A stretch of DNA of 64,000 bases from Candidatus Omnitrophota bacterium. GTDB lineage: Bacteria > Omnitrophota > Gorgyraeia > Zapsychrales > Fredricksoniimonadaceae. The notes beneath the pieces were generated by a model. It did no database searches. It was not told the DNA's origin and worked only from the letters and a program-made list of their open reading frames with translations. Below, in pieces: positions 18,944 to 51,605 of the stretch. Numbering within the stretch: position 1 is the first letter of the stretch; each line of letters starts with the position of its first letter. The stretch covers positions 28,143 to 92,142 of the forward strand of contig JBAXRK010000002.1 in NCBI GenBank assembly GCA_037131245.1. The letters are read 5' to 3'. The position numbers were made by a program, and so were the translations under genes.

Positions 18944-21027
18944 GCGCCGACCCGTCTTTCTTCAACAAGCGGGCGGTCGTCAAGGAGATCACGATCTTCG
19001 GCGGTCTTAGCTGGCTGACGGTCAACCGCATCGCGCGCCTGGTCGAGCTTGTTGAGTTCCCTAAAGGGAGCCTGATCTGCCGGCAGGGCGCGCCCGCGGA
19101 CGCGTTCTACGCTATGGTTTCCGGCCGGGTCACGTCTTACCAGGTGGACGCCCGGGGGCAGAAGGACGTGGTTGACGTCCTGGTGCGCGGCATGCATTTC
19201 GGCACCATTTCCGCCCTGACGGGCGAGAACCATTCGCATACCTACCAGGCGGTCAATGATTCCCTGGTGCTCAAGATCAAAAAGGAAGATTTCGCCGAGC
19301 TCTTGCAGGTCACGCCTAAACTGGCGCTGGCGCTTAGCGTCAATCTGTCCCTGAAGGCCCGCGAGCGGTCGCCTGTCCCGTCGGGATCACACGAGAACGC
19401 GCTGATCGCGGTCTACGCCCCGTCCGGGGGGAACGCCAGCGGTGCTTATGCCGCCAGCCTGGCCTCGTCGCTGAAAGACCAGGCGCACGGGAGCAAGGTC
19501 TTGCTGCTGCGTTTTTCATCTGATCCGTCTTCATCCCTGTTGAATTTACAGGATATTATTTCCGATCATCAGCGCAGTTTGCAGGCTGTGTCCCAGGGCA
19601 ATACAACAGTAGATACGCTGGAGGTCCGGTTCGACCCGAAGGATCCGGGGATCAGCGGGCGTATCGGCCAGTTCGCGGGCTGGTTCGTTAAGGATTATGA
19701 GCGCATTGTTTTTGACCTTTCCGGGCCGATGGAGGACGCGGTCATCAAGCTGCTGATCCAGTCGGATATTATCCATTTGTCCGTCCGGGCCCTGGAGGCG
19801 GAGCTGGAACTGGCACGGCAGGCTATTGAGGTCCTTTCACGGGAGTTGAAGGAGGAATTCAGCCCCGATAAAGTGCGGGCGGTCATTGACGGCCAGCCGG
19901 GAGAAGGGGCGCTTAAGCCGGAAGATATCCGCAAGGTCCTTAATTACGATTCGTTTGTGGTCCTGCCTTATCTGGAGGCTGACTATATTCTGGCCGTGCA
20001 AAGGCTGGGCCGGCAGATCACCGGCACCATGATCGGGCTGGTCCTCGGCGGCGGCGCGGCGCTGGGCATGGCTCATGTGGGCGTGATCCGGGTGCTGGAG
20101 CGCGAGAAGATACCGGTCGACGTGGTGGTCGGCAGCAGCATGGGGGCGCTGATCGGCGGCTTATGGGTTTCCGGCCACAACGCGGATGATCTGGAGAAGA
20201 TCGCCCGGGAATTTTCCAATCAGGCCGGCCTGCTGAAACTTTTTGACCCGCCGGTGCAGCGCGGGCTGGTGCTCCTGGTCATTATTTGCGTGTTCTGGCT
20301 GCTGGGCTACGGGTTGCTGGCGGCGTTCCTGATCTTCATGCTGATCCCGCTGGGTGTGGTGCCGGTCTCCGGTGTGGTGAAGGGCAAGGCTATCGGCCGG
20401 TGGCTTAAGAGCAAATTCGGCCGGGCGGCTTTCCATGATACGTCCGTGCCGCTGCGGGTGGTGGGCTATGACCTGCTGCACCGGCGCGAGATCGTGATCG
20501 ACCAGGGCATTATTATGGACGCGGTTTTTAAAAGCATCGCGATCCCGGGCATTATTCCGCCGGTTACTGAGGCGGGGCAGATGGTTATTGATGGCGGGGT
20601 TTTAAACCCCCTGCCGGTGAATGTGCTCACCGACATGGGCATTAAGCGCATCATCGCGGTCAATGTGCTGCAGTCGCCCGAAGAGGTTTGCTGGGGTGAA
20701 GAATGGAGCATCAAGCGCTACCGGCATATGGCCCGGGTCCCGTTCAAGCGCCATCCATGGAAATTCATTTCGTTGCGCCTGGGCGGCTTCCTGGGAAAAT
20801 TCTTATCGCCTAACATCGCGGATATTATTGTCCGCACCTTACAGGCCTCCGAGTATATCTTCGCCGAGAACAGCGGCCGGCAGGCCAATGTGCTGATCCA
20901 CCCCGACCTTCGGGGCATTCAGTGGTTCGAGCTTTACGAAGTCGATAAACTCATCCAGCGCGGGCACGAGGCCGCGATGCAGCATTTACCCGCCATGAAA
21001 GCCATGGTCAAGAAGGAGAAACAATGA
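18916..21027 (+). CDS. cyclic-nucleotide-binding domain / patatin-like phospholipase fusion
   Basis: 703 aa. N-terminal CAP-type cNMP-binding domain (FGGLSWLTVNRIARLVELVEFPKGSLICRQGAPADAFYAMVSGRV). C-terminal patatin signatures: GGGAALG (GxGxxG), GSSMG (GxSxG) and DGG. A hydrophobic hairpin is inserted between the GxSxG and DGG motifs. Overlaps the ACAD stop by 28 nt. Confidence 0.7.
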   Translation: MDGERSYKISADPSFFNKRAVVKEITIFGGLSWLTVNRIARLVELVEFPKGSLICRQGAPADAFYAMVSGRVTSYQVDARGQKDVVDVLVRGMHFGTISALTGENHSHTYQAVNDSLVLKIKKEDFAELLQVTPKLALALSVNLSLKARERSPVPSGSHENALIAVYAPSGGNASGAYAASLASSLKDQAHGSKVLLLRFSSDPSSSLLNLQDIISDHQRSLQAVSQGNTTVDTLEVRFDPKDPGISGRIGQFAGWFVKDYERIVFDLSGPMEDAVIKLLIQSDIIHLSVRALEAELELARQAIEVLSRELKEEFSPDKVRAVIDGQPGEGALKPEDIRKVLNYDSFVVLPYLEADYILAVQRLGRQITGTMIGLVLGGGAALGMAHVGVIRVLEREKIPVDVVVGSSMGALIGGLWVSGHNADDLEKIAREFSNQAGLLKLFDPPVQRGLVLLVIICVFWLLGYGLLAAFLIFMLIPLGVVPVSGVVKGKAIGRWLKSKFGRAAFHDTSVPLRVVGYDLLHRREIVIDQGIIMDAVFKSIAIPGIIPPVTEAGQMVIDGGVLNPLPVNVLTDMGIKRIIAVNVLQSPEEVCWGEEWSIKRYRHMARVPFKRHPWKFISLRLGGFLGKFLSPNIADIIVRTLQASEYIFAENSGRQANVLIHPDLRGIQWFELYEVDKLIQRGHEAAMQHLPAMKAMVKKEKQ

Positions 21028-21395
21028 AAACCATTCTGATCGTTGAAGATACCCAGGATTACGCGGACGCCCTTTCCTTCATCCTGTCACGGAAAGGCTT
21101 TAACGTTGCCCTGGCGCCCGATGGAGCGACCGGCGTCACCAAAGCCGTCAGGCTTAAGCCCGACCTGATCCTGATGGACGTGATGCTGCCCGACCAGGAC
21201 GGCGCGGAGACGGTCACGCAGATCCGGGAACATCAGGCCCTATCCGGCATTCCTATCGTTTTCCTGACCGCGCTTACCTCTGATAACAAGCCTGGCGACC
21301 AAACGATCGTGGTCCATGACCGGCCTTATCCGGCGCTTTCCAAAATGCTGGGGCAGGATGAGATCGTCAAGCGGGTCGAGCAATTCCTCGCTTAA
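21024..21395 (+). CDS. stand-alone response-regulator receiver (CheY-like REC) protein
   Basis: 123 aa. ILIVEDTQD, phospho-acceptor context LILMDVMLPDQDG, then LTA..K. No output domain. ATGA overlap with the upstream gene. Confidence 0.75.
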   Translation: MKTILIVEDTQDYADALSFILSRKGFNVALAPDGATGVTKAVRLKPDLILMDVMLPDQDGAETVTQIREHQALSGIPIVFLTALTSDNKPGDQTIVVHDRPYPALSKMLGQDEIVKRVEQFLA

Positions 21396-21456
21396 AGCGA
21401 TCCTCCATCATCATCTAAGTCTCGACGGTACTTATATAGATAATCCTTTAATTTTG

Positions 21457-21485
21457 TTGGGTTACCTAGTAAAATTTGTTAGTAT
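21457..21485 (+). promoter_or_regulatory. candidate promoter of the multihaem cytochrome operon
   Basis: TTGGGT, a 17-nt spacer, then TAGTAT (21480-21485), in a 100-nt AT-rich gap. The ATG at 21498 is only ~6 nt past the predicted TSS, giving a very short leader. Confidence 0.25.
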
Positions 21486-21497
21486 TTTACAGGTAAA

Positions 21498-23081
21498 ATG
21501 ATAAATATAAGCCCTTCAAAATTAGCCGTGATCGCAGGCCTGGCCATTCTTCTGGTGGCGGCGATCCTCTATAAGCAGTCGATCGAAAAAGTGGTCATGC
21601 CCGGCCGCCTGGCCGAGGCCCATGCCAAGTATGAGAGCCAATGCATCAAATGTCATTCCGCTTTCAAAAAAGGTGAGCAGAATGCCCTGTGCCTCGATTG
21701 CCATAAAGACGTCGCCGGCGACTTAAAGGTGCATCAGGGTTTGCACGGCCAGATCGTGGCCATTTCGAGCAAGGATTGTAAATCCTGCCATCCCGACCAT
21801 ATGGGCCGGTCTTTTGTTATCGCCCGCCTGGATAAAGCCACCTTCAAACACGACTGGACAGACTTTCCCTTGCACGACGCGCACGCGGGCCTGAGCGTGA
21901 CCTGCGACGCCTGCCATACGGCCGGTAAAAAACATCGAGATGCTCCGAAGGATTGTTTCAGCTGCCATCAGAAGGACGATCATCATAAGGGCGCCCTGGG
22001 CAAGAATTGCGCGGATTGCCACAAGGAAACGGCCTGGAAGGAAACGTATTTCAATCATGCCAAGACGCACTTTTTATTGACGGGCAAGCATCAGAAGGTG
22101 GCTTGCAATGCCTGTCATACCAACGAGACGTATAAGAATACGCCGCTCGACTGCAAGTCCTGCCATATGATCAACGATGTCCACGCCAGCCCTAAGGAAG
22201 AGCGCTGTGAACGCTGTCATAATCCGGAGGATTGGAAAAAGGTCACCTTTTTGCATGATACGGCTACCAAGTATCCTTTGAAAGGCGCGCATGTTCAGGC
22301 GGCCTGCGCCGCTTGCCATAAAGCGAACCTGTTCACCGTTAAGACAGGAACGCAATGCGTTGACTGCCATAAGGTTGATGATGTGCATAAAGAAAAGAAC
22401 GGTGTTAAATGCGCGTCCTGCCATACCGAGAATGACTGGAAGAAAGTGACGTTCGACCATGATCGCGATACGCATTTCAAGCTGTCGGGCCGGCATGGCA
22501 AGACCCAGTGTGATGCTTGCCATAAAGCGCCGTCCCTGGACATGAAAGTTGATAAAGTCTGTAACGCCTGCCACGAGTCGCGGGATGTGCATAAGGGGCA
22601 GGTCGGTGTTGATTGCCAGGTGTGCCATAACGAAGCGGGGTGGAAGGAAAGCATTAAGTTCGATCATGACCTGGGCGGTTTTCCGTTGATCGGCCAGCAC
22701 ACGGTCCTTGCCTGTAGTCAATGTCACAAGACCATGGCTTTTAAAGATGCCAAGATCGATTGTAATTCCTGTCATGCCAAAGAGGACGTTCACAAGAAAG
22801 GGTTGGGGACCGAGTGCGCGGATTGCCATAATCCCAACGGGTGGAAGTTCTGGCAGTTCGACCACGATACGCAAACGAAATACAAGCTTGAAGGGCCGCA
22901 CGCGGGGATCAAGTGCCAGGCCTGCCACTATCAGCCGATGGGTAAAGTGGTAACGGCGTCGACGAATTGTATCGCCTGCCACGAGAAGGACGATGCTCAC
23001 AAGGGGCAGTTCGGGGAGAACTGCGAGCAATGCCACGCGGTCGATTCGTTCAAGAAATATTTCAAGGGGAGAAAGAACTGA
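21498..23081 (+). CDS. multihaem cytochrome c (~21 CxxCH motifs), signal-anchored
   Basis: 527 aa. N-terminal TM/signal segment. 21 CxxCH motifs counted by hand (CIKCH, CLDCH, CKSCH ... CEQCH). Very haem-dense. Confidence 0.85.
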   Translation: MINISPSKLAVIAGLAILLVAAILYKQSIEKVVMPGRLAEAHAKYESQCIKCHSAFKKGEQNALCLDCHKDVAGDLKVHQGLHGQIVAISSKDCKSCHPDHMGRSFVIARLDKATFKHDWTDFPLHDAHAGLSVTCDACHTAGKKHRDAPKDCFSCHQKDDHHKGALGKNCADCHKETAWKETYFNHAKTHFLLTGKHQKVACNACHTNETYKNTPLDCKSCHMINDVHASPKEERCERCHNPEDWKKVTFLHDTATKYPLKGAHVQAACAACHKANLFTVKTGTQCVDCHKVDDVHKEKNGVKCASCHTENDWKKVTFDHDRDTHFKLSGRHGKTQCDACHKAPSLDMKVDKVCNACHESRDVHKGQVGVDCQVCHNEAGWKESIKFDHDLGGFPLIGQHTVLACSQCHKTMAFKDAKIDCNSCHAKEDVHKKGLGTECADCHNPNGWKFWQFDHDTQTKYKLEGPHAGIKCQACHYQPMGKVVTASTNCIACHEKDDAHKGQFGENCEQCHAVDSFKKYFKGRKN

Positions 23082-26000
23082 TGCGACATCTATTCTTGAC
23101 GGGCTTGCTGATGGTGTTCGTTGTGGCGGGCGCTGGCGCGGCGCTGGCTGCCGATGCGCCGGCGTTCGACCATTTCGCGACCGGCTATCCTCTTAATGGC
23201 GCGCATCGGGGGATCTCTTGCGATAAATGCCATATCCGCGGGGTGTTCAAAGGGACGCCGAAAGTGTGCGGTTCCTGCCATATTTCCGGCGGCTCTTTCG
23301 CGGCGACGCCCAAATCGGCGAATCATATTCAGAGCAGTGAGCGTTGCGATGATTGCCATTCCACGGACAGTTTCAGCCACGCGACGATCAACCATGCCCT
23401 TTTTACCGGCACGTGTTCGAGTTGTCATAATGGCACGATCGCGACGGGAAAATCGGCGGCGCATATCCCCTCATCAAGCGCTTGCGCGACCTGCCATGCC
23501 ACCAGTGCCTGGGTCCCGACGAAACGCATTGATCATGCTTTTGTCGTTGGCACCTGCGCGAGCTGCCATAACGGGTCAACCGCGACGGGAAAACCGGCGA
23601 CTCACCTGGCGACGAACGCGGCGTGCAGCACCTGCCATGGCACGTCCAGTTGGGCGACATCATCTTTTGATCATAGCGGGATCAGCGGGGTGTGTTCTTC
23701 CTGCCATAATGGAACAACGGCCACGGGAAAGTCCGCGACGCATGTGGCGACCAGCACGAATTGCAGTGCCTGCCATGGCACGGCTAATTGGGCGATCAAT
23801 CGTTTTGACCACACCCAAGCCAGCGGTGCCTGCTCGAGTTGTCATAATGGGACGGCGGCGACGGGTAAGGCGGCGACGCATATCGCGTCCGCCAGCACGT
23901 GCGCCAGCTGCCATTCGACGTCTTCCTGGACGGCGGGGACCAAGGTGGACCATGCTTTTGTCACGGGGACTTGCGCCAACTGTCATAACGGCACGTCGGC
24001 CACCGGAAAACCGGCTACGCACGTTGCCACGACGGCTAATTGCAGCAGCTGTCACAGCACGGCCAGTTGGGCGGTGGCGTCGTTCACGCATGCCGCGGTT
24101 TCCGGAAGTTGTGCAAGCTGCCATAATGGTACAACGGCGACAGGGAAATCGCCGACGCATGTCGCGACCAGTACGAATTGCAGTGCCTGTCACGGGACGT
24201 CCCATTGGGCGGTGACCTCTTTTGATCATACCCAGGCGGTGGGGGCCTGTTCCAGTTGCCATAATGGGACGGCGGCGACGGGAAAGCCGGCCACGCATAT
24301 CGCGTCTGCCAGCACTTGCGCCAGTTGTCATTCGACCTCTTCCTGGACGGCGGGGACCAAGGTGGACCATGCTTTTGTTACGGGGACTTGCGCGAGCTGC
24401 CATAACGGGACGACCGCGACCGGTAAATCGCCGACGCATATCGCCACCTCTGGCAGCTGTAATGCCTGCCATGGCACGTCCAGCTGGGTTATGTCGACCT
24501 TTGATCATAGCCAGGCCAGCGGAACCTGTTCGAGTTGCCATAACGGGACAGCGGCAACGGGTAAGCCGGCGACGCATATTGGCTCTGCCAGCACCTGCGC
24601 CAGCTGTCATAATACGACGGCCTGGACGCCCTTGACCCGGATGGACCATACGGCCGCGACCGGGACCTGCGCGAATTGTCATAACGGGACGGCAGCAACG
24701 GGCAAGCCGGCCACGCATGTGGCGACGACGGGCAGTTGTGATGCCTGCCATTCAACCTCCAGCTGGGTGGTTTCTTCTTTCGATCACAGCAAAGCCAGCG
24801 GCACGTGCGTGAGCTGCCATAATGGAACGACCGCGACGGGGAAATCGGCCACGCATGTGGCGACCAGTACGAATTGCACCGCTTGTCACAATACGAACAA
24901 TTGGGTGGTGACGGCTTTTGATCATACGCAAGCAGTTGGCACGTGTTCAACCTGCCATAATGGGACGGCGGCAACGGGTAAGTCGGCGACGCACATTGCT
25001 TCCGCCAGCACTTGCGCGAGTTGCCACTCGACAGCCACTTGGTCGCCGGCGACCCGCGTGGACCATACGGCGGTGACCGGGACTTGCGCCAGCTGCCATA
25101 ACGGGACGACGGCCACCGGTAAACCGGCGACGCACGTGCCGACAACGGCTAGCTGTAATACGTGCCACGGCACTTCCAGTTGGGTTGTTGCGGCCTTTAA
25201 TCATAGCGGGGTGACGGGTACATGCGCGAGTTGTCATAACGGGACGACGGCGACCGGTAAATCGGCGACGCACGTGCCGACCAGTACCAATTGTAGCGCT
25301 TGTCATAACACGAACAACTGGGTGGTGACGGCTTTCGATCACAGCCAGGCGGTAGGTGCGTGTTCCACCTGTCATAACGGGACGGCCGCGACCGGTAAAT
25401 CGCCGACACATATTGCTTCAGCCAGCACCTGCGCCAGCTGCCATAACACGACAGTGTGGAGCCCGGTGACACGGGTGGACCATACGGCGGTGAGCGGCAC
25501 CTGCGCGAGCTGTCATAACGGGACAGCGGCCACAGGCAAGCCGGCCACGCATATTGCCACCACCGGTAATTGTGATGCTTGCCATTCAACCTCCAGCTGG
25601 GTGGTGGCGACGTTCGACCACAGCAAAGCCAGCGGCACGTGCGTGAGCTGCCATAACGGGACGACGGCGACGGGCAAGTCGGCCACGCACGTGGCGACCA
25701 GCACGAATTGCAGCGCCTGCCACAATACGAATAATTGGGTTGTAACGGCTTTCGACCATAGCCAGGCGGTTGGCACATGCTCAACGTGCCATAACGGGAC
25801 AGCGGCGACGGGGAAGTCGGCGACGCATATTGCTTCAGCCAGCACCTGCGCGAGCTGCCATTCAACGTCGGTGTGGAGCCCGGTAACGCGGGTGGACCAT
25901 ACGGCGGTGACCGGCACGTGCGCCAGCTGCCATAATGGCACGGCCGCGACAGGGAAGCCGGCCACGCATGTGGCGACCACGAGCAATTGCAATGCCTGCC

Positions 26001-27166
26001 ACGGAACGAGTTCCTGGCTTATTTCCCGGTTCGATCATTCCCAGGCAACGGGGACCTGCGTCAGCTGCCATAACGGGACGGCAGCGACCGGTAAATCGCC
26101 CACGCATATCACCACGTCAACCGCTTGCGCGAACTGCCATAATACGACGGCCTGGAGCCCGGTGACACGGGTGGACCACACGTCGGTGACCGGCACGTGC
26201 GCGAGCTGCCATAACGGAACGAAGGCGACAGGCAAGTCGGCCACGCATATCGCGACATCGGGTGCTTGTGACGCGTGTCATAACGCGACGGCCTGGACGC
26301 CGGTAACGCGGATCGACCATACGCTGGTCACCGGCACGTGTGTTTCCTGCCATAACGGCACGGCAGCAACGGGTAAGTCGGTCACGCATATCAGCACGTC
26401 GACCGCTTGCGCGAACTGTCATAATACGACGGCCTGGAGCCCGGTGACACGGGTGGACCATACGGCCGTGACCGGCAGCTGCTCTAGCTGTCATAACGGA
26501 ACGGCGGCGACCGGGAAAACACCGACGCATATCAATACCACGAATGCTTGCGACAGCTGTCATTCCACAACCACCTGGACGGCGGTCACGCGCGTGGATC
26601 ATACGGCGGTGGTCGGGACCTGCGCGAGCTGCCATAACGGGACGATCGCGACAGGAAAGACGCCCACCCATATCCCGTCTTCCACCAGCTGTGGTTCCTG
26701 CCATAACACGAATGCCTGGTTACCGGCGGTTTTCGACCATACCGGTGTGGCGCAGACCTGCGTGACCTGCCATAATGGCACAACCGTGGCCGGCAAGTCG
26801 GCGAGCCATATGAGCACAACGAACAGCTGCAACCTGTGCCATTCCACCGTGGCCTGGGTACCGGTCGCCCGCGTTGACCACACGGCGGTCAGCGGCACCT
26901 GCTACAGTTGCCATAACGGGACGGTAGCGACGGGTAAGGGCCCGTTGCATATGAATACGAGCAACACGTGTACCAATTGCCATTCCACGTCGAACTGGAC
27001 GGTAGCGGATAATAGGGTGAGCCATACGGATGTTATCGGGACCTGCACCAGCTGCCATGACGGGCTGACGCATGACGGCATGACCGTTCAGGGTAAGCCG
27101 CGCGGCCATCCGGCGACAAACAAGGATTGCGGCGCTTGCCATTCAACAAGAACCTTTAGTATGTAA
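23081..27166 (+). CDS. giant tandem-repeat multihaem cytochrome c (~1361 aa, ~57 CxxCH motifs)
   Basis: Start ATG 23081 overlaps the upstream TGA by 1 nt, in frame with track ORF 22967. Signal peptide MRHLFLTGLLMVFVVAGAGAALAA. Body built of ~46-47-aa Thr/Ser/Asn-rich modules, each with two CxxCH (TCxSCHNGTxATGK...CxxCH.T..W). Manual count ~57 haem motifs. Confidence 0.85.
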   Translation: MRHLFLTGLLMVFVVAGAGAALAADAPAFDHFATGYPLNGAHRGISCDKCHIRGVFKGTPKVCGSCHISGGSFAATPKSANHIQSSERCDDCHSTDSFSHATINHALFTGTCSSCHNGTIATGKSAAHIPSSSACATCHATSAWVPTKRIDHAFVVGTCASCHNGSTATGKPATHLATNAACSTCHGTSSWATSSFDHSGISGVCSSCHNGTTATGKSATHVATSTNCSACHGTANWAINRFDHTQASGACSSCHNGTAATGKAATHIASASTCASCHSTSSWTAGTKVDHAFVTGTCANCHNGTSATGKPATHVATTANCSSCHSTASWAVASFTHAAVSGSCASCHNGTTATGKSPTHVATSTNCSACHGTSHWAVTSFDHTQAVGACSSCHNGTAATGKPATHIASASTCASCHSTSSWTAGTKVDHAFVTGTCASCHNGTTATGKSPTHIATSGSCNACHGTSSWVMSTFDHSQASGTCSSCHNGTAATGKPATHIGSASTCASCHNTTAWTPLTRMDHTAATGTCANCHNGTAATGKPATHVATTGSCDACHSTSSWVVSSFDHSKASGTCVSCHNGTTATGKSATHVATSTNCTACHNTNNWVVTAFDHTQAVGTCSTCHNGTAATGKSATHIASASTCASCHSTATWSPATRVDHTAVTGTCASCHNGTTATGKPATHVPTTASCNTCHGTSSWVVAAFNHSGVTGTCASCHNGTTATGKSATHVPTSTNCSACHNTNNWVVTAFDHSQAVGACSTCHNGTAATGKSPTHIASASTCASCHNTTVWSPVTRVDHTAVSGTCASCHNGTAATGKPATHIATTGNCDACHSTSSWVVATFDHSKASGTCVSCHNGTTATGKSATHVATSTNCSACHNTNNWVVTAFDHSQAVGTCSTCHNGTAATGKSATHIASASTCASCHSTSVWSPVTRVDHTAVTGTCASCHNGTAATGKPATHVATTSNCNACHGTSSWLISRFDHSQATGTCVSCHNGTAATGKSPTHITTSTACANCHNTTAWSPVTRVDHTSVTGTCASCHNGTKATGKSATHIATSGACDACHNATAWTPVTRIDHTLVTGTCVSCHNGTAATGKSVTHISTSTACANCHNTTAWSPVTRVDHTAVTGSCSSCHNGTAATGKTPTHINTTNACDSCHSTTTWTAVTRVDHTAVVGTCASCHNGTIATGKTPTHIPSSTSCGSCHNTNAWLPAVFDHTGVAQTCVTCHNGTTVAGKSASHMSTTNSCNLCHSTVAWVPVARVDHTAVSGTCYSCHNGTVATGKGPLHMNTSNTCTNCHSTSNWTVADNRVSHTDVIGTCTSCHDGLTHDGMTVQGKPRGHPATNKDCGACHSTRTFSM
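23410..26950. repeat. coding tandem repeat array (~140-nt double-haem module; 3-module ~417-nt higher-order repeat) inside the giant cytochrome gene
   Basis: Protein-level periodicity of 46-47 aa with module types A/B/C recurring as ABC-ABC. DNA copies e.g. 24779-25200 vs 25613-26030 are ~85% identical. The array generates many spurious long ORFs in all other frames. Confidence 0.8.
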
Positions 27167-27178
27167 TAGAGGGTGACA

Positions 27179-29317
27179 ATGAAATTGTTCAGAACGATGT
27201 TGTTCCTGATAGCGGCGGTATTTTGCCTGGCCGCGCCTGTTCATGCCAGCGCGTTGGAAGAGGTGAGGATACAAGTTCTGCCTGATGGGTATGAACTATC
27301 CCTTAATTCTCTTTACGCGTTTCAATTACGCAATCTGTCTCCGGTCGGCAAGGCGCGGAAATTCGATATTCAGCTAAAGACCCTGAATTATTCGACCCTC
27401 TCCCAGGAAGGCCGGGATGATATTAATAACGGGGTGATCCCTGCCTGGGACAAGTCGACGGGCCTGCCGCTGAAGGATTTGCATTTTGACGGTGACGACC
27501 AGGAGAATCCCAAGTTAATGATCGAGTTTACCGAGGATGTCCAGATCGATGTGCGTGGTACCGGGGATCAGAAAACCCTGATCATCCGGGTGACGACCGA
27601 CCAGCCGCCGGCGAGTGTGGTGCTTGGCGGGCAACAGGGGGTGGCGATCCCCTTGCCTGACGTCAAGGATGCCGGTGCGGAGTCCGAGGCGCCGCTCATG
27701 GCACAAGCCAAAGAGGCCTTGATGAAAGGCGAGTATGATATGGCGGCCGAGCTTTATCTGAAGGTGCTCTTGACCGCCAAAGGCCCCTTGAAACAACAAG
27801 CCCGAGAATTGCTTGGCGTTGCCCGTGAACGTAATGGCCAGCTGCCCCATGCTGCGGCCGAGTATCAGACCTATCTTAGGGAATATCCTAAAGGTCCCGA
27901 TGCCGACCGCGTGCGCCAGCGCTTGGCCGGCGTGGTAACGGCCGATATGGAACCGCGGACGGCTTTGAAGGAGCCGCTGACGCCCGCCCAGAAAGCCCGG
28001 GCCGAGCAGGCTTTATGGACATCGCAGATCTTTGGCAGCATGTCGCAGTTCTATTACTGGGATTCGCTCAAGATCAAGGGCGGCAAATTCCGCCAGAGCG
28101 TTAATTATCTTTCCAATGACGTGGACCTTAACGGCCGCTTCAAAAGCAAGGACATGGATGTGAACGCCCGCTTTACCGGCGGTACTTTGCAGAATTACCG
28201 TGAGGGCGGCGTTGACGAGGACCGCATCAGCGCGATGTCGGTGGAAGTTAATATGAAAGAGAAGGGGCTTTATACCCGGGTGGGCCGCCAGTCGCTCTCG
28301 ACCGGCGGGGTGCTGGGGCGTTTTGACGGTGTGCAGGTGTCCCAGCGGATCAGGCCCGGCATCAAGCTTAACGGCGTTTACGGCTTTCCGGTGGATACGG
28401 TCAAGATGCCGGAGATCGTGGCGCAGAAGCATTTCGCGGGGGTCAGCATCGATTGGGGCCAGCCAAAAGCCAAGTGGAACTTTAATACCTACGCGATCGA
28501 GCAGTGGAATACGGGCTTGGTGGACCGTCAAGCGGTCGGCGGTGAAATGCGTTATTTTGACATGCAGAAGGCTTTTTTCACCATGCTTGATTATGATACC
28601 TACTTCAAGCAGATCAATATCGCGTCGTTCAACGGGCACTGGAGTTTGCCTACCAAGACCTCGCTGACTTTTGCCGGGGATTACCGCAAGACGCCGCTAT
28701 TGACCGTCAATAATTCCGTTCAGGGGACGGGGTTCGTTGAGATCTCGGACCTGACGGACCGTTTTACCCGTAAAGAATTGCGTCAGTTAGCGCTGGATCG
28801 TACGACCAATAGCAAGTCGCTCTCGGCCGGGATCAGCCAGGACTTGCGCGCGAATTTACAGTGGACGGCGGACGTTTCGGTTTCCGCGATCGAAGGCACG
28901 ATGTCGACGCCGGCGATCACCCTGGTGGAAGGGTCGGACGCGGTGGCCCCGGATTACACGTATTCAACCGAACTTATCGCGAGCAATGTGTTCAAGGAAG
29001 AAGATTCGATCATTTTCGGGTTGGGTTATACCGATTCCGCGGCGAGCAATGACAATTCGATGAACATCAACTGGCGTTATCCGCTGACGTCGCGGATACG
29101 CTTTAACCAGAAGCTGCATATCGCGTTCCGGACAGCGAAGGAATCGACCGACCGGCGGCTAACGACCCGGCCGACCGCGCACCTGGACATACGGTTGACC
29201 AAGTCGGCGAACCTGGAACTGGAAGCCGGAACGGAATGGGTGACCGAGATATCGGCCGGCCAGCGGACCAAGTCGCTGGAAGAGTTCGCGACGATCGGTT
29301 ACCGGCTCAGCTTTTAA
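27179..29317 (+). CDS. outer-membrane beta-barrel-like protein with N-terminal TPR-like region (candidate porin partner of the cytochromes)
   Basis: Start moved to ATG 27179 (MKLFRTMLFLIAAVFCLAAPVHA signal peptide) with an AGAGGGTGA RBS. C-terminus GYRLSF has the aromatic terminal residue typical of OM beta-barrels. Alternating amphipathic strands in the C-terminal ~450 aa. Confidence 0.5.
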   Translation: MKLFRTMLFLIAAVFCLAAPVHASALEEVRIQVLPDGYELSLNSLYAFQLRNLSPVGKARKFDIQLKTLNYSTLSQEGRDDINNGVIPAWDKSTGLPLKDLHFDGDDQENPKLMIEFTEDVQIDVRGTGDQKTLIIRVTTDQPPASVVLGGQQGVAIPLPDVKDAGAESEAPLMAQAKEALMKGEYDMAAELYLKVLLTAKGPLKQQARELLGVARERNGQLPHAAAEYQTYLREYPKGPDADRVRQRLAGVVTADMEPRTALKEPLTPAQKARAEQALWTSQIFGSMSQFYYWDSLKIKGGKFRQSVNYLSNDVDLNGRFKSKDMDVNARFTGGTLQNYREGGVDEDRISAMSVEVNMKEKGLYTRVGRQSLSTGGVLGRFDGVQVSQRIRPGIKLNGVYGFPVDTVKMPEIVAQKHFAGVSIDWGQPKAKWNFNTYAIEQWNTGLVDRQAVGGEMRYFDMQKAFFTMLDYDTYFKQINIASFNGHWSLPTKTSLTFAGDYRKTPLLTVNNSVQGTGFVEISDLTDRFTRKELRQLALDRTTNSKSLSAGISQDLRANLQWTADVSVSAIEGTMSTPAITLVEGSDAVAPDYTYSTELIASNVFKEEDSIIFGLGYTDSAASNDNSMNINWRYPLTSRIRFNQKLHIAFRTAKESTDRRLTTRPTAHLDIRLTKSANLELEAGTEWVTEISAGQRTKSLEEFATIGYRLSF

Positions 29318-29325
29318 CAGGCAGG

Positions 29326-31239
29326 ATGGTCGCATTGAAGGCAGTTTTAATCGCATTATTATTTCTGGCGTGCGCGGGGGAGTGTCTTGCCGCTGTTGCC
29401 GAAAGCCCGGTGGCTCCGTCGCAGGCGCTCGAAGATGCCAAGCGCGCGGTGCGCCTGAGGGATTACAAAAAAGCATTCAACTTCTTTACCGACGCGGCGC
29501 GCCAGGGCAATGCCCAGGCGCAGTTCAACCTGGCGATGATGTATGAAAGCGGCCGGGGCACGCCCGCCGATCGCGATGCCGCGCTTAGCTGGTACAAGGC
29601 CGCGGCCCTCCTGAAATACGCTCCCGCCATTGAAAAAATCGACGAGCTTAAGAAACAGGGCGAAGATATCCGGCGTAACCCTGACGCTTCCAAAGAAGAG
29701 CAGTTGTTGGCGGCGATCCGGGAGAATAGTGCTGACGATGTGTCGCGCCTGCTGGGTGCCGGCGTTAATATCAATTACCAGGATAAATACGGGCAGACCG
29801 CTTTGATCGTGGCGGTAGAGGCCGGGCCTGACAGCCTGGACCTGGTGCGCCGGCTGGTCGCCAAAGGCGCGGGCCTGGAAGCGCAAGGTAAGGACGGGCG
29901 CAACGCGCTGTTGACGGCGACGCTGAGAAAAAATATTGAGGCGGCGCGTTTTTTGCTGGGATCCGGGGCGTTGGTTGACGCGGCCGATGCCCAGGGGGTG
30001 ACCGCGCTGATGCTGGCCGCGCAGCTTGATGACGCGGCGATGGTCAATTTGCTTATTGAAAAGAAAGCCGATCCGAAGAAGGTTAACGCGGCCGGGCATG
30101 GGGCGCTGGAGATCGCGCTGCTTAAGAAGCATGATGATATCGCCCGCCTTCTTCTGGCGACGGGCAAAGTGGCCCTGCCGCCGCAATTCAAGGATCCCGA
30201 CGCGGTAAAAGCCGTGGCGGCCAGGCTTAAGGATATGAAAGAGGCCAACAAGGGGACGCCGTTCGAGAAATGGACGCCCCTGATGCTGGCGTCATGGCGG
30301 GGAGAAAAAGAGATCGTGGTTTTGTTGCTGTCGCAGGGGGAAGCCGTCGACACCTTGAGCGATGACGGTTACACCGCGTTAAGCCGGGCGGCCTGGCAGG
30401 GGCACGCGGATATTGTGGAGCTGTTGCTGAAGGCCGGGGCGAAGAGCGACGCCGTTCCGGACCAGGCAAAAGCCTCGCCGCTGATCCTGGCGGCGGCCAA
30501 CGGGCATGAGGAGGCGCTGGCGCGCTTGATCGCCAGCAGTGGTTACGCGCCGGCGCGCGCGGCAATTTTTAAGGCAGCTTTAGCCGCCGCTGTCAAGAAC
30601 GGCCACGGGGCGGCAGCTAAATGTTTACTTGAGGCGGGGGTTCCGCTGGGTTCATCCGAAGCCGGTGGTTCGCCGCTGTTATCCGCGGCGGCCAGCGGGG
30701 ATGTTAATCTTATCGAGATCTTTCTGGACCATCAGGCTGACGTTAATGGAGCTGACAGCACGGGCCGGACGGCGTTGATGATCGCTGCCGAGAACGGCCA
30801 GGCCGACGCGGTAAAAGTCCTGCTGGCGCGCCACGCGGCGCTGGATGCCCAAAATAATGATGGGTATTCGGCGCTGTCTTTCGCGGCGCGCGCGGGTAAA
30901 GCCGATGCGGCCGCGCTGTTGCTGGCAGCCGGAAGCCGGGTTGACCTCGTGGGCATTCGTGGTGATACGCCCTTGATCCTGGCGGCGGATGCCGGCGCCG
31001 GGGAAGTGGCGCGGCTTTTGCTGGAACATAAGGCCTCGGTGGACATGGCCAATAAAGCGGGGGATACGCCGCTGCTCATCGCGGTCAAGCGCGACGATCG
31101 CGCCATGGCCGCGCTGTTTCTGGAACACGGGGCTAATCCGTACCTGTCGGTGAAGACCGTCGATAATTCCAGCGAGGCCATGAGAGCGCTGCTGGATAAA
31201 CATAAAAGTGTCAAGAATTGGCTGATGAAGCTCCTATGA
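29326..31239 (+). CDS. secreted Sel1-repeat / ankyrin-repeat protein
   Basis: Start ATG 29326 (MVALKAVLIALLFLACAGECLA signal peptide). Sel1-like repeat AQAQFNLAMMYESGRGTPADRDAALSWYKAAA. At least 10 ankyrin repeats (GxTALMxAAxxGHxxxVxxLLxxGA pattern) through the C-terminus. Confidence 0.75.
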   Translation: MVALKAVLIALLFLACAGECLAAVAESPVAPSQALEDAKRAVRLRDYKKAFNFFTDAARQGNAQAQFNLAMMYESGRGTPADRDAALSWYKAAALLKYAPAIEKIDELKKQGEDIRRNPDASKEEQLLAAIRENSADDVSRLLGAGVNINYQDKYGQTALIVAVEAGPDSLDLVRRLVAKGAGLEAQGKDGRNALLTATLRKNIEAARFLLGSGALVDAADAQGVTALMLAAQLDDAAMVNLLIEKKADPKKVNAAGHGALEIALLKKHDDIARLLLATGKVALPPQFKDPDAVKAVAARLKDMKEANKGTPFEKWTPLMLASWRGEKEIVVLLLSQGEAVDTLSDDGYTALSRAAWQGHADIVELLLKAGAKSDAVPDQAKASPLILAAANGHEEALARLIASSGYAPARAAIFKAALAAAVKNGHGAAAKCLLEAGVPLGSSEAGGSPLLSAAASGDVNLIEIFLDHQADVNGADSTGRTALMIAAENGQADAVKVLLARHAALDAQNNDGYSALSFAARAGKADAAALLLAAGSRVDLVGIRGDTPLILAADAGAGEVARLLLEHKASVDMANKAGDTPLLIAVKRDDRAMAALFLEHGANPYLSVKTVDNSSEAMRALLDKHKSVKNWLMKLL

Positions 31240-32108
31240 TAGAAAAGATAAAATCTTTTTACGCCAAAAGAATTTACAGCCGGCTTTTACCGGCCTTCTC
31301 GGTTTTTGTTTGCCTCGTCCTGCTGATCGGCTGGCGGCTTAGCCGCCATGAGCTGATCACGCCCAAACATGGCGCCGGTTACCTGCTCGGCCCGGTCGGT
31401 GTCATTTTGGTCATTGTCCTGATGATCTATCCGCTCAAGAAAAGGATCAAGACCTTGGCTGTTCCGGGCAGCGCCAAACAATGGTTCCAGTTCCACATGT
31501 TCCTTGGCGTGGTCGGGCCGCTTTTTATCCTTTATCATGCCAATTTTCATTTCGGGGCGCTTAACAGCAATGTTGCCCTTCTGTCGCTGTTGATCGTTTC
31601 GGCCAGCGGGGTGGTCGGAAAATATTTCTACGGACGGATCCATCGCACGCTCTACGGTGAGCGCACCAGTTTGCTGGAGCTACAGAAAACCTTCGACCAG
31701 CAGAAGGAAGAGGTTGAGATCCATCTGGGGATCATCCCCGGTGTCCGCGAGGAGCTCGGCCGGTTCGCGGCGAAAGTGTCCACGCCGACCAAGGAATTGA
31801 TGCTTAGTTTTAAACGTTTGTGCCTGGTGCGCTGGGAAGCGCAGGTGGTGCGCTGGAAGATCAGGGGCCTGATCATCTCTTTCCTTGATCAGCATGCCAA
31901 AGAGCGCCAGTGGAGCCCCCTGCGTAAGCGCCTGATGCGCGCGCAGATGGCTCGTAAAACGCTCAAGTTCCTTGGCCAGACGCTAAAGGTCGCGGAGTTC
32001 AACTTTTATGAACGGGTGTTCTCTTATTGGCATATGCTCCATCTGCCGCTGGTTTTTATCCTCGCCTTTGCTGTCCTTTTTCATGTTTTAGCCGTGAACC
32101 GGTATTAA
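31236..32108 (+). CDS. integral membrane protein with intramembrane His pairs (possible b-type haem / redox partner)
   Basis: ATG 31236 overlaps the ankyrin gene stop (ATGA). About 5 TM helices. TM3 carries FQFH...LYH (His i, i+14) and the last TM carries WHMLH...FH. No family assignable. Confidence 0.45.
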   Translation: MIEKIKSFYAKRIYSRLLPAFSVFVCLVLLIGWRLSRHELITPKHGAGYLLGPVGVILVIVLMIYPLKKRIKTLAVPGSAKQWFQFHMFLGVVGPLFILYHANFHFGALNSNVALLSLLIVSASGVVGKYFYGRIHRTLYGERTSLLELQKTFDQQKEEVEIHLGIIPGVREELGRFAAKVSTPTKELMLSFKRLCLVRWEAQVVRWKIRGLIISFLDQHAKERQWSPLRKRLMRAQMARKTLKFLGQTLKVAEFNFYERVFSYWHMLHLPLVFILAFAVLFHVLAVNRY

Positions 32109-32136
32109 GGAAAGCAACTGTTCTTTCCGTTTTTAA
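32109..32136 (+). terminator. rho-independent terminator after the cytochrome gene cluster
   Basis: GGAAAG-caactgtt-CTTTCC perfect 6-bp stem directly after the stop at 32108, followed by GTTTTTAATCGATTTTTTATGGTTTTTTTT. Confidence 0.55.
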
Positions 32137-32266
32137 TCGATTTTTTATGGTTTTTTTTGCTCCGCGGGTTGCATTTACACCCTGGATGTGTTAACCTTTC
32201 GGGTATGTAAGACGTTCTTCGTGATTATCTTGATTCTCCAATTTTGTTCCCCAAGGAGGCCCCTAT

Positions 32267-37362: not shown

Positions 37363-38001
37363 ATGAGAATTGCTGATTTTGTCAATAAGTACCAACATGT
37401 GCCGATCCTAACGACCGATCTCTTGTTGACTGGAGTGGCTGATCCGGCTTCTTTGCGTGTTCAACTGGCGCGCTGGGTAAAGGCCGGGCATTTGCTTTCT
37501 TTACGAAGCGGCGTTTATGTTCTGGCTCCGTATTTTCAGAAGGTTGTGCCGACCGTTTATTTTCTGGCGCAAGCGTTGAAAGAGCCCTCATATGTGAGCC
37601 TGGAGAAAGCCCTGGAATTTCACGGGCTTATTCCGGAGGCGGTTTTTACGGTTACGTCGGTGACAACCCGTCGACCGGGGTCGCTGGTAACGCCGCTGGG
37701 ACGGTTCGATTTTCAGCATATCCGGGCCGGATTGTTCTGGGGTTATTTTGCGGTCACCATCGGCGCTCAAACCGGGTTCATGGCTTATCCGGAGAAAGCC
37801 CTGCTTGATCTTTTTTATCTGAGGGCACCGGGGGTGACGCGCGATTATCTGGAAGGTTTGCGTTTGCAGAACATGGAAAAAATTGATACCGGGCGGCTTC
37901 TTGAGTACGCCCAAAAGTTTGGCAAGCCGGGGATGCTGCGCGCGGCCGGGATGGTCGCCGCTTACAAGAAGGAAATGCTGGCGCAGGAGAAGTCTGTATG
38001 A
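37363..38001 (+). CDS. abiEi: type IV toxin-antitoxin system AbiEi-family antitoxin / transcriptional regulator
   Basis: 212 aa. N-terminal AbiEi_4-like pattern (LLSLRSGVYVLAPYF). AT-rich promoter-like island at 37324-37362. 4-nt overlap with the downstream AbiEii gene. Confidence 0.6.
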   Translation: MRIADFVNKYQHVPILTTDLLLTGVADPASLRVQLARWVKAGHLLSLRSGVYVLAPYFQKVVPTVYFLAQALKEPSYVSLEKALEFHGLIPEAVFTVTSVTTRRPGSLVTPLGRFDFQHIRAGLFWGYFAVTIGAQTGFMAYPEKALLDLFYLRAPGVTRDYLEGLRLQNMEKIDTGRLLEYAQKFGKPGMLRAAGMVAAYKKEMLAQEKSV

Positions 38002-38801
38002 AGGATCATTGTTTGGAGCTGACGGCCAGGCAGTCAACGCCGGCATCAAAATATAATATCCTTAGGGAATATGCCCAGGCTTATGTGCTTAAGCTGCTTC
38101 AGGATGCCGGGCAATTTCGCCATTATGCTTTTGTCGGCGGGACAGCGTTGCGGTTCCTTTATGATCTGCCGCGGTTTTCCGAGGATCTTGATTTCTCCGT
38201 GGTCACGCCCTCGCCGCTGGCGTTCGGCGATTTGATGGCCAGGATCAAGCGGGACCTGTTGCTGGCGGGGTATCAGGCGGATGTTGTCTATAACGATACC
38301 AGGACGGTATGGTCGGCTTTTATTAAATTCGAGGGTTTGCTGTTCGAGGCCAGGCTTTCGCCCATGAAGAGCGCCAAGTTCTCCATCAAGGTTGATATTG
38401 ATACCAAACCTCCCGCGGGCGCCGTGGTGGTGACGACGCTGGTGAACAAGTTTTTCCCGGTCGCGTTCTTGACCTACGACCTTCCGTCGCTGTTTGCGGG
38501 TAAGACGCACGCGATCTTGTGCCGCACGTATATCAAGGGCAGGGACTTTTATGATGTCGCCTGGTATTTGTCGAGGAAGAAGGGGTTGCAGCCGAATATG
38601 AACCTGCTTGCGGCGGCATTGGCACAGACGGGTTGGGCGGGAGAGCCGGTAACCGAGGCGTCCTGGCGAAAGGTGTTGGGTCAGCGGGTAGCGCAGGCCG
38701 ACTGGAAGGTTGTGGAGCGGGATGTGGTTAATTTTCTTGAACGGCCGGATGACCTTCAGGTGTTGACTCGGGAGAATTTGCTGGCTTTGATCGGGGTGTG
38801 A
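37998..38801 (+). CDS. abiEii: nucleotidyltransferase AbiEii-family toxin (DUF1814)
   Basis: 267 aa. YAFVGGTALRFLYDLPRFSEDLDFSV is the hallmark AbiEii/NTase motif. Confidence 0.7.
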   Translation: MKDHCLELTARQSTPASKYNILREYAQAYVLKLLQDAGQFRHYAFVGGTALRFLYDLPRFSEDLDFSVVTPSPLAFGDLMARIKRDLLLAGYQADVVYNDTRTVWSAFIKFEGLLFEARLSPMKSAKFSIKVDIDTKPPAGAVVVTTLVNKFFPVAFLTYDLPSLFAGKTHAILCRTYIKGRDFYDVAWYLSRKKGLQPNMNLLAAALAQTGWAGEPVTEASWRKVLGQRVAQADWKVVERDVVNFLERPDDLQVLTRENLLALIGV

Positions 38802-45035: not shown

Positions 45036-46264
45036 TGTTTTCCAATTACTGCTCGCCTGTCCGTTTTCCGTGGCTCCGTATTAAGGATGACGGGACGCCC
45101 GTTAACCGCCTGCATTGCTTGATCTATGATCTGCAGTGGAAGAGGGGCGTTAAGGCCAAACTTCTGCTTAAAGCTGTTTTATGGCCGCTTAAGGCTTTCC
45201 TGATGGCGTTCCACGACGCATTTCTTTACGGGCTAACCGTTGAGCGCGATTTTGGGATTAGTCGTTGGAAGCAATGGTGGCGCATGTTCTATTTGGCGAA
45301 CTTCTATAATCTTTCGCCGTATGTTTTTTATAAGTTCGGTTTTTATAAAGACAGTCATTACGCCAGGGCGGCCGCGTTTATTCAGCATATCGAGATGGAT
45401 GCGATGTATCAGGCATTATTTAGTGGCGTTGATAACGGGATCATTGATGACAAGTTAAGGTTTTACGCGCGTTGCCGGGAACGCGGGATCCCGGTCCTTT
45501 TTGTCGAGGTCGTATTCCAGGATGATGGTCGGATCGAATGGCCTGCTGGCGCGGCGAAAAGTTTCCCTTTGTGTGATCTTTTTTTGAAGTATACCAATTC
45601 TTCGCTGGGTGTTGGGGCGGAGGCCTGGAAATACGATGCTGCCGCCCGAACCTGGCAGCGGGACGGCATTTCACTTGATGAACGCTTGTTCATCGCCTAT
45701 TGCGTGAAGAAATCCCGTGCGGAACGCAAACCGGTCCTGGTTCAGCGCCGGCTGGTGAATTCGCCTGAGATAGTTCAGTTTACAACCGGCGCGCTAAGCA
45801 CCTTCCGGGTGGTCACCTATGTCGGGCCTGATGGAAAGATCGGGATCCTATCCGCCGGACTTAAAATGCCGGTGGGGGCGATGGAGGTTGACAATTCCAG
45901 GGCTGGCGGTATTGTGGCCGGGATCGAGCTTGAAACGGGTGTGCTGATGCCGGCGTCCAGCCGGAGTTTCCCTGGGCAGTTAATGCCGCAACATCCAGAT
46001 ACGGGCGCCACCATCTCTGGTCATCGCTTATCTTGCTGGCAGGAAGTGCGGGTGTTAAGCCTTAAAGCCCAGGCGGCTTTTCCCGAGATATGGTCGGTCG
46101 GCTGGGATATCGCCATGACCGATCAGGGCTTGGTAATGATCGAGGGGAATACCGATTATGGCTTACTGCTGGCCCAGCGTTGCATAACCCAGCCGCTGGG
46201 CGAGACAATTTTCCCGACGCTTTGTTTAAATATCCTGGAGAAGAAGTCATGCGCCCGGTCGTGA
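45035..46264 (+). CDS. sugar-transfer-associated ATP-grasp-like protein, paralog 2
   Basis: 409 aa. Paralogous to the 42793-44037 product along its full length. Confidence 0.5.
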   Translation: MFSNYCSPVRFPWLRIKDDGTPVNRLHCLIYDLQWKRGVKAKLLLKAVLWPLKAFLMAFHDAFLYGLTVERDFGISRWKQWWRMFYLANFYNLSPYVFYKFGFYKDSHYARAAAFIQHIEMDAMYQALFSGVDNGIIDDKLRFYARCRERGIPVLFVEVVFQDDGRIEWPAGAAKSFPLCDLFLKYTNSSLGVGAEAWKYDAAARTWQRDGISLDERLFIAYCVKKSRAERKPVLVQRRLVNSPEIVQFTTGALSTFRVVTYVGPDGKIGILSAGLKMPVGAMEVDNSRAGGIVAGIELETGVLMPASSRSFPGQLMPQHPDTGATISGHRLSCWQEVRVLSLKAQAAFPEIWSVGWDIAMTDQGLVMIEGNTDYGLLLAQRCITQPLGETIFPTLCLNILEKKSCARS

Positions 46265-46902
46265 AGATCCTGCTGGTCCTGGCTGCCCTGACCGTTTCAG
46301 GGCTTTTGCTTTACTGGGTTAAATGCCAGTTGGGTGTGAACGTTATCGATGGGTTCCGTTGGGAAGACCGTATCCCGGCGCTTGAGGTGTTCCAGAAGCA
46401 TATCAAGATTGTGCATCCTAAGCCGGGGGAAGAGTTATTTACGGCGACGTTTGAAAATGAGGTGGCCCTGAAGCCCTGGTGGAAGGCTTATGTGCTGGGC
46501 AAAGGACTGGTAGGGGAGCGGCTTTCTCTTGAAGGCCGGGGCGGCTCCAAAGCCCTTGAGATGGCCAATTTATCGGAACTTTTCTGGGTGAAGGAGTACG
46601 ACCACTGGGTGGGGGTTAAGCCGGGTGAGGTGTTCGCTTACCAGGGGTATTGCCGTTTTCCGGCTGGGGCAACGGAGAAGAGGCGGGCTTTTATGGGCAT
46701 TGCCCTTCATGATGCCGCCCGTAAGCCCGTTAAATGGAATGCCGCTGAAAGCACTGTTACTGCCGCGGGTGGCGCTGATTGGCAGGAGCTATCCGGCCGG
46801 CTGGTTGTTCCGGAAGGCGTCGCTTTGATCCGTTTTCGTATTTCCGGTGATCAGCAGGGACCTATCCTGTTTGATGATATCCGCTTGTGGCGGGAAAAAT
46901 AA
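46249..46902 (+). CDS. membrane-anchored hypothetical protein with carbohydrate-binding-module-like C-terminus
   Basis: Start ATG 46249 (MRPVVKILLVLAALTVSGLLLYW), in frame with track ORF 46090. The C-terminal GPILFDDIRLW resembles the terminal strand of galactose-binding-like CBMs. Confidence 0.4.
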   Translation: MRPVVKILLVLAALTVSGLLLYWVKCQLGVNVIDGFRWEDRIPALEVFQKHIKIVHPKPGEELFTATFENEVALKPWWKAYVLGKGLVGERLSLEGRGGSKALEMANLSELFWVKEYDHWVGVKPGEVFAYQGYCRFPAGATEKRRAFMGIALHDAARKPVKWNAAESTVTAAGGADWQELSGRLVVPEGVALIRFRISGDQQGPILFDDIRLWREK

Positions 46903-46925
46903 TCTCCCTGAAACAGTACCTCGCC

Positions 46926-46954
46926 TTGACATTCATCAATTCATAGTACATACT
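46926..46954 (+). promoter_or_regulatory. putative sigma70-type promoter upstream of the HTH regulator gene
   Basis: TTGACA (46926-46931), a 17-nt spacer, then CATACT (46949-46954), in an AT-rich 130-nt intergenic gap. Confidence 0.3.
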
Positions 46955-47044
46955 TCTATCTATATTTTCACATTTTAGTGGAATTTCCGCAGGGATTAAG
47001 CGATTATAAACGATTTTAATTGATTCACGGGGGTGCTTGCTTTT

Positions 47045-47227: not shown

Positions 47228-47252
47228 GACTAAGAAAATCATGGAGGAAAGA

Positions 47253-48386: not shown

Positions 48387-48410
48387 AAGAATTAAATTCC
48401 AGGAGGCGTA

Positions 48411-49151: not shown

Positions 49152-49162
49152 TATTGGGAATG

Positions 49163-51596: not shown

Positions 51597-51605
51597 GGAA
51601 AAACT

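Follow-up and report, generated by a model that had tools for sequence, protein, structure and literature searches.

A probable PCC3-type porin-cytochrome gene cluster encoding 21- and 57-haem cytochromes in a Candidatus Omnitrophota contig

Introduction

PCC3, a porin-cytochrome system which was defined and predicted by He, Barco, Emerson and Roden in 2017 (PMC5566968) and found mostly in Proteobacteria, is among the most widespread of the predicted electron conduits. Besides a porin and an inner-membrane protein of ~300 amino acids (aa), it comprises two cytochromes, one extracellular, with a median of 34 and a maximum of 85 haems, and one periplasmic, with a median of 21; the membrane protein has five helices with an SGxxG motif on helix 4 and Wx3Hx13H motifs on helices 3 and 5; the cytochromes are repeat-built, rich in Thr/Ser/Ala/Gly and use very few residues per haem, and the gene organisation was called “largely conserved” without being treated as defining (PMC5566968). 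Here, we describe a locus from a contig of a Candidatus Omnitrophota bacterium (JBAXRK010000002.1; the 64,000 nucleotides (nt) analysed, positions 28,143 to 92,142 of the contig, are referred to as “the window” below) that encodes two multihaem cytochromes of 21 and 57 haems, a porin and a membrane protein, and that probably belongs to this very family.

According to later papers, PCC3 is present in many Gallionellaceae, and its cytochromes have been modelled as long and linear. The cluster of Sideroxydans lithotrophicus ES-1 is Slit_1446-1449, which encode, in this order, the membrane protein, the periplasmic cytochrome, the extracellular cytochrome and the porin.

Results

Six co-directional and densely packed open reading frames (ORFs) are found at positions 21024-32108 of the + strand of the window (all features of the locus given below are on this strand), those after the first encoding, in this order, a 21-haem cytochrome, a 57-haem cytochrome, a porin, a Sel1/ankyrin-repeat protein and a membrane protein. 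An initial annotation of this stretch, made from its letters and ORFs, had counted nine genes; there are six, and extra ones can be excluded because the intergenic gaps are only 102, 12 and 8 nt. The same four components as in PCC3 are present: an outer-membrane barrel gene lies beside multihaem cytochrome genes, the porin has a large barrel, the presumed periplasmic cytochrome is repeat-built and has 21 haems, the second cytochrome is a haem-rich, repeat-built giant that abounds in Ala, Ser, Thr and Gly and spends ~23 aa on each haem, and the ~300-aa (here, 290-aa) five-helix protein bears SGxxG and two Wx3Hx13H motifs exactly as published. The differences from PCC3 as described by He et al. 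(2017) are the Omnitrophota host, the gene order, which is not the usual one, the absence of a flavoprotein gene (see below) from all 64 kb, and the Sel1/ankyrin partner. The locus is thus, in our judgement, likely to be a PCC3-type cluster (sensu He et al. 2017) specifying an envelope-spanning haem chain for which electron export is the favoured use, and it is this family membership that supports calling it a candidate envelope-spanning electron conduit. The family is a known, if uncharacterised, one, and it is the Omnitrophota host, the derived gene order and the lost flavoprotein that are possibly new here; the family of the Sel1/ankyrin partner and its pairing with a flavoprotein at related loci (see below) may be new as well.

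The first of the cytochromes (21498-23081, 527 aa, PCC3 “periplasmic” type) contains 21 CxxCH motifs and 48 His residues, and is composed of seven trihaem units of ~67 aa with a haem spacing of 16-18/16-18/32-33, a periodicity matching the seven repeats of 65-67 aa described for the Riftia symbiont cytochrome with 21 haems (supplement of PMC5566968). Six of its stretches are matched by Pfam Cytochrome_C7, a phmmer comparison with the PDB sequences gave no match, and it is 42-51% identical over ~520 aa to those cytochromes of other loci whose genes adjoin the membrane-protein gene. The second cytochrome (23081-27166, 1361 aa, PCC3 “extracellular” type), whose gene overlaps the first by a single nucleotide (ACTGATG), has 57 CxxCH motifs where ~0.85 would be expected from its own composition (T 18.6%, A 13.9%, S 12.9%, G 8.2%); both haem counts and the overlap, as originally annotated, were verified in the sequence. 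Its mature form contains 117 His and 45% Ala+Ser+Thr at 23.5 aa per haem, and is built from dihaem units of 46-47 aa (CxSCHNGTxATGKxxTH... / CxxCHxTxxW...DH...) that are grouped in a 139-aa six-haem super-repeat, with Cytochrome_C7 matching 18 stretches. As the repeat copies are only 68-78% matched at the DNA level, they are old and diverged, and no artefact of assembly. The giant is 36-57% identical to the neighbours of porin genes at other loci, and the presence of about two His per haem in both proteins (117/57 and 48/21) suggests a bis-His ligation pattern.

A hydrophobic N-terminal segment is seen on all four exported proteins, and both cytochromes have export signals at their N-termini. 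For the giant, this is a Sec-type signal peptide (...AGAALA/AD) with a clear Ala-x-Ala site, which is missing in the 21-haem protein and present in the orthologue of the latter from a Solemya symbiont. The hydrophobic segment of the 21-haem protein could hence be a signal peptide, or it could anchor the protein in a membrane, and of its initial description as a “signal-anchored 21-haem cytochrome”, the haem count and the hydrophobic N-terminus hold, whereas the anchoring is uncertain, there being no Ala-x-Ala site.

In ENA-derived gene calls for the same contig, both cytochrome genes (21498-27166; L001 4344-9964) are replaced by 11 antisense ORFs of 55-363 aa, and the NCBI numbering (MEI6437304, 306, 307) leaves a single accession for the giant cytochrome, an exact look-up of which with two alternative starts found no called product on record. 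Surveys that use calls of the kind in which antisense ORFs are put over cytochromes would therefore undercount these systems. The starts of the ankyrin (29326) and membrane-protein (31236) genes agree with public gene calls.

The porin (27179-29317, 712 aa, ending in ...GYRLSF) was modelled using AlphaFold2 and an alignment of 68 sequences, and the model is a confident one, with a predicted local distance difference test (pLDDT) score of 87.9 and a predicted template-modelling score (pTM) of 0.74. It consists of a signal peptide (residues 1-25), a periplasmic beta-sandwich (26-139), a TPR domain (171-254) and a barrel of 22 strands (281-711) with a helical insert at 510-540, so the outer-membrane barrel with a C-terminal Phe that had been proposed initially is borne out, and the terminal Phe is nearly invariant. 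An AMIN identity was considered for the N-terminal beta-sandwich and rejected, as the isolated domain gave no Pfam AMIN match; among the porin relatives, two carry PF11741 and many carry SPOR. A separate secreted paralogue of the beta-sandwich, ~165 aa in length, is encoded just upstream of the porin in other loci (L017 153-635, L047 755-1252 and 30 more). Many of the porins at these loci also bear SPOR or AMIN domains, which hints at peptidoglycan anchoring. The closest porin relative in the genome scan (L006 9478-15769, 56% identity) has no N-terminal domain and no multihaem cytochrome nearby, being flanked by genes for a 4Fe-4S protein and for ResB/CcsA cytochrome-c maturation.

The membrane protein (31236-32108, 290 aa) is modelled by AlphaFold2 (pLDDT 88.1) as spanning the membrane with five helices and extending a long helical hairpin into the cytoplasm. 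Its two Wx3Hx13H motifs begin at residues 83 and 265, in the modelled helices 80-101 and 228-289, and SGVVG begins at 124, in helix 109-138. The motif residues do not vary across 66 homologues, H87, H101, H269 and H283 included. Going by the positive-inside rule, the cytoplasmic side would be the one closer to H87/H269, and the periplasmic side the one closer to H101/H283. By its motifs, the protein is a candidate dihaem-b transmembrane electron carrier. It has been argued that such His-x13-His pairs on two helices bind two stacked b-haems across the membrane (PMC5566968). The two pairs on two helices are also what it shares with the PF01794 ferric-reductase/NOX domain and cytochrome b561, the motif spacing of PF01794 being a fit; unlike these, it has five helices, the fourth and fifth of which are separated by a cytoplasmic helical insert of 110 residues. 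It is 35-36% identical to proteins of Bradyrhizobium sp. (strains other than those in He et al. 2017), one of which is encoded in a cluster with cytochromes of 18 and at least 90 haems (see below). A homologue of 450 aa (P0149) is fused to a Sel1 repeat, which supports the idea that membrane protein and Sel1/ankyrin protein are physically linked.

That Sel1/ankyrin protein (29326-31239, 637 aa, secreted, with matches to the Pfam Sel1 and Ank families) had been regarded as an unusual partner; rather, it is a regular neighbour, its gene being present in 25 of the 36 loci that include the membrane-protein gene, and in six of the 11 loci without it the sequence ends within ~900 nt of the membrane-protein gene. 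Orthologues from 27 loci have a common layout of signal peptide, Sel1 repeat and ankyrin repeats, the Sel1 N-terminus being conserved and the ankyrin repeats numbering about 12, and the protein of locus L086 is 43% identical to that of the window over its full length (E = 3e-164). Judged by this conservation of sequence and layout, the protein is a member of a true orthologous family and a conserved PCC3 partner. Its gene is usually paired (24 of the 36 loci, and L086, L087 and L088 besides) with that of a membrane-anchored ferredoxin-FAD oxidoreductase of ~436 aa, in which a helix at the N-terminus accompanies a 4Fe-4S dicluster domain and a Pyr_redox_3 domain for FAD/NAD(P) binding. In most PCC3 loci, this gene adjoins those of the ankyrin and membrane proteins (e.g., L009 1623-3002, L043 1586-2896, L086 2426-3739 and L088 8309-9610). 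The presence of this flavoprotein beside PCC3 genes suggests a NOX-like cytoplasmic electron input. A word search of the main text of three PCC3 papers found no mention of either partner, and literature searches for PCC3 with ankyrin, or for Omnitrophota with porin-cytochrome, gave nothing relevant.

Relatives of the porin occur in at least 501 species genomes and form 1315 representative protein clusters (E <= 1e-30), and the loci compared here are 80 retained from the genome scan for such relatives, to which the window and Solemya symbiont loci were added (82 porin loci). Multihaem cytochrome genes lie beside the porin relative in 72 of the 82. Among the 80 loci, wherever the flank suffices, the membrane-protein gene comes first, followed by those of the 21-haem cytochrome, the larger cytochrome and the porin. 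This order has been seen in Gamma-, Alpha- and Deltaproteobacteria, in Omnitrophota and in a metagenome-assembled genome (MAG) with no finer label than “Proteobacteria” (L009), whereas the components are all there but rearranged at a Verrucomicrobiota locus (L010). Hosts of porin relatives include Gamma-, Alpha- and Deltaproteobacteria, Nitrospirota, Nitrospinaceae, Verrucomicrobiota and other Omnitrophota. In this synteny comparison, of a kind suggested by the initial annotation, the same redox genes stay together across many phyla. The locus described here adds Omnitrophota to the PCC3 hosts, and related loci add further phyla outside the Proteobacteria.

The cytochrome adjoining the membrane-protein gene has 21 CxxCH motifs in 29 of 36 loci. 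The 57 haems of the larger window protein, thought extreme when first annotated, are not extreme for this family: counts in its relatives are 69 in the Solemya symbiont, 73, 89 in another Omnitrophota MAG and 90 or more in a Bradyrhizobium MAG, and the published maximum, as mentioned, is 85. The 89 CxxCH motifs are in an ORF of 2148 aa from Omnitrophota HK-STAS-OMNI-4 (L008 3482-9985), and the Bradyrhizobium gene (L088 12704-20882) is of 2849 aa, with at least 90 motifs in the available part. The latter locus, in which the same membrane-protein motifs accompany an 18-haem cytochrome and this second one, ties the family to a genus named in He et al. (2017). Several gammaproteobacterial PCC3 loci have a DUF6502 and DUF5666 gene pair after the porin (L013 5847-8305, L061 11722-14012 and ~8 others).

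Discussion

Taken as a PCC3 system, the locus could work as follows. The 290-aa membrane protein would bind two b-haems by its four invariant His residues and carry electrons across the cytoplasmic membrane; the 21-haem cytochrome, which would be ~17 nm long if linear, would bridge the periplasm; the 22-strand barrel, in which a cytochrome would reside, would be the outer-membrane passage, with the beta-sandwich and TPR domains docking to the wall or to partners; and the 57-haem bis-His cytochrome, ~45 nm if linear, would extend the haem chain to or past the cell surface. Both lengths are scaled from the ~8 Å per haem of MtrA. The secreted Sel1/ankyrin protein may, we infer, be a periplasmic scaffold or chaperone of these very long, low-complexity cytochromes. 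A periplasm is indicated by MdoG-/MdoH-like periplasmic glucan genes at 1290-4690 of the window, which are consistent with a diderm envelope. The logic of combining a periplasmic cytochrome, an outer-membrane barrel and an extracellular cytochrome, on which the initial annotation was built, holds given the 22-strand barrel, the export signals and the synteny, and of the three outcomes it had named as damaging (a non-barrel product, cytochromes devoid of signal peptides, homologous loci in non-respiratory contexts only), none was seen.

Several points weigh against this reading. PCC3 itself is “functionally unverified” according to the later papers, with no component characterised in any organism. 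The extracellular position of the giant is a prediction from sequence, to be set against its ordinary Sec signal, its lack of a lipobox and the lack of a known export route. The barrel is no more similar to MtrB than to TonB-dependent receptors or porins. For the membrane protein, neither Pfam (E <= 0.01; this includes PF01794) nor NCBIfam has a family, and Foldseek found nothing significant for its model in the PDB (cytochrome b561 had E = 1.5), so haem-b binding is argued solely from the motifs. As to the electron input at the inner membrane, the ferredoxin-FAD oxidoreductase of other loci is nowhere in the 64-kb window. Lastly, the cultured hosts with studied PCC3 (Sideroxydans ES-1 and CL21, and Leptothrix) are all Fe(II) oxidisers.

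Direction is, indeed, where the most serious alternative arises: the same PCC3 machine might be run inward, as has been proposed for iron oxidisers, with Fe(II), reduced minerals, a cathode or another cell acting as the electron source. PCC3 was discovered in Fe(II) oxidisers, is common among them and occurs in 59% of Sideroxydans genomes; the gene for the copy-2 membrane protein of Sideroxydans CL21 is up during iron oxidation, and Hoover et al. report evidence of reversible electron flow through Mto/Mtr conduits. The window, however, has heterotrophic donor pathways (beta-oxidation and a GlpD-type glycerol-3-phosphate dehydrogenase, whose genes lie upstream of the locus with one for glycerol kinase) and no carbon-fixation or oxidase genes, although it spans just 64 kb, and all the haems look bis-His, which is typical of low-potential chains without being decisive. 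Given the beta-oxidation and GlpD-type neighbours, it seems somewhat more likely that respiratory electrons leave the cell for an acceptor that is insoluble or extracellular, and we consider uptake unlikely, albeit by no means far-fetched.

A more speculative extension of the PCC3 reading follows from the membrane protein being mostly paired with flavoprotein and Sel1/ankyrin genes. PCC3 might be a larger machine than published, in which a split, NOX-like route leads from NAD(P)H or ferredoxin through flavin and Fe-S clusters to the two b-haems and on to a haem-c wire of tens of nanometres, bypassing the quinone pool. Omnitrophota are described as ultra-small and host-dependent, and the ~45-nm, 57-haem wire of such a cell could exchange electrons directly with a partner cell and not with minerals. 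We hold this extended reading to be doubtful for now. The conserved Sel1/ankyrin protein and the ferredoxin-flavoprotein provide testable handles on the assembly of long cytochromes and on electron feeding.

It is improbable, we think, that the giant, instead of being part of a respiratory conduit, mainly stores electrons in the periplasm or at the surface like a capacitor, or serves to buffer or detoxify soluble metals and oxidants. The proteome of ES-1 could be cited in its favour, as the PCC3 membrane protein, periplasmic cytochrome and porin were detected there and the extracellular cytochrome was not, but a store would hardly need a barrel, a periplasm-length cytochrome and a dihaem-type membrane protein, all of which have been kept together across phyla.

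The architecture of the porin invites yet another comparison, since exopolysaccharide porins also combine TPR and barrel, and since sugar-transferase, rml and Wza-like genes of a polysaccharide-synthesis cluster begin 160 nt downstream of the locus: the protein could be a PgaA/BcsC/PelB-like exporter serving that cluster, its adjacency to the cytochromes being coincidental. Exopolysaccharide TPR-porins (PgaA, BcsC, PelB, AlgK/AlgE) have barrels of 16-18 strands and are encoded with polysaccharide synthase genes, which is not what the window porin looks like, and with both strand number and synteny contradicting it, this idea is very hard to sustain. Scarcely any credence can be given to a wholly new class of conduit either, the “previously undescribed conduit” of the initial annotation, for even though barrel and membrane protein are both without a named family in Pfam and NCBIfam, and PDB fold and sequence searches found no solved structure for any PCC3 component, all the testable defining features of the published PCC3 (PMC5566968) are present, down to the exact membrane-protein motifs.

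As for the better-known conduits, MtrCAB/MtoAB (Shewanella, Sideroxydans) likewise have a haem chain threaded through an outer-membrane barrel plus an outer cytochrome, and differ in having 10 and 10 haems (21 and 57 here) and a CymA-type tetrahaem quinol dehydrogenase in place of the putative b-type inner-membrane partner. MtrC carries a lipoprotein signal, unlike the window giant, and MtrB-family barrels have 26 strands, which sets the 22-strand window porin apart from them. On the DmsE/MtrA decahaem model TIGR03508, the giant scores 225.7 bits against a cut-off of 192.2, a score summed over 12 stretches, and it weakly matches a 333-aa chain (6r2q_A) of the Mtr complex entry (phmmer, E = 3e-5). 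This chain, labelled “Cystathionine beta-synthase” in the PDB table, we take to be MtrA. Going by these matches, the relation of the giant to MtrA is a repeat-level kinship and not orthology, and the initial statement that none of the proteins resembles MtrABC consequently needs amending for the giant. The Geobacter conduits OmbB-OmaB-OmcB and ExtEFG also have porin, periplasmic and outer cytochromes encoded together; there is no family-level match to them (the GSU2203 decahaem model gave 137.9 bits against a cut-off of 325), and the window locus has far more haems and a porin with a TPR/beta-sandwich N-terminal region.

Locus boundaries and neighbouring genes

The first of the six ORFs (21024-21395, 123 aa) encodes a response regulator with a receiver domain only (Pfam Response_reg, 2.6e-19), which had initially been counted as a member and upstream boundary of the module. 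Its ATG overlaps the stop of an upstream cNMP-binding patatin gene (ATGA), while 102 nt lie between it and the first cytochrome gene, so that coupling to the patatin gene seems the more apparent one. As the synteny comparison found no orthologue next to other PCC3 loci, and as the receiver encoded at the head of the related operon L086 is only 22% identical to it, we set it outside the core: it is probably a neighbour that merely adjoins the module. The AT-rich 102-nt spacer (21396-21497) likely holds the promoter of the cytochrome operon, although a scan for the sigma-70 consensus gave no match at its threshold.

After the last stop, a terminator-like hairpin (GGAAAG, an 8-nt loop, CTTTCC) followed by T-runs occupies 32109-32160, between the module and the downstream polysaccharide genes. 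The “clean intrinsic terminator” annotated initially is thus there as a hairpin with T-runs, whereas its strength as evidence is less than had been implied, since the region has no excess of terminator-like patterns over shuffles (17 against an expected 13.0 +/- 4.1), making it a plausible terminator and not a strong one.

Further downstream, the rml/polysaccharide cluster is interrupted at 37363-38801 by an inserted AbiEii-type toxin gene (37998-38801) and that of a 212-aa partner. Over 46000-64000, where distal polysaccharide/glycosyltransferase-like genes are located, the guanine-cytosine content drops from ~0.56-0.61 to 0.43-0.50, and this part of the window may be a horizontally acquired surface-polysaccharide island.

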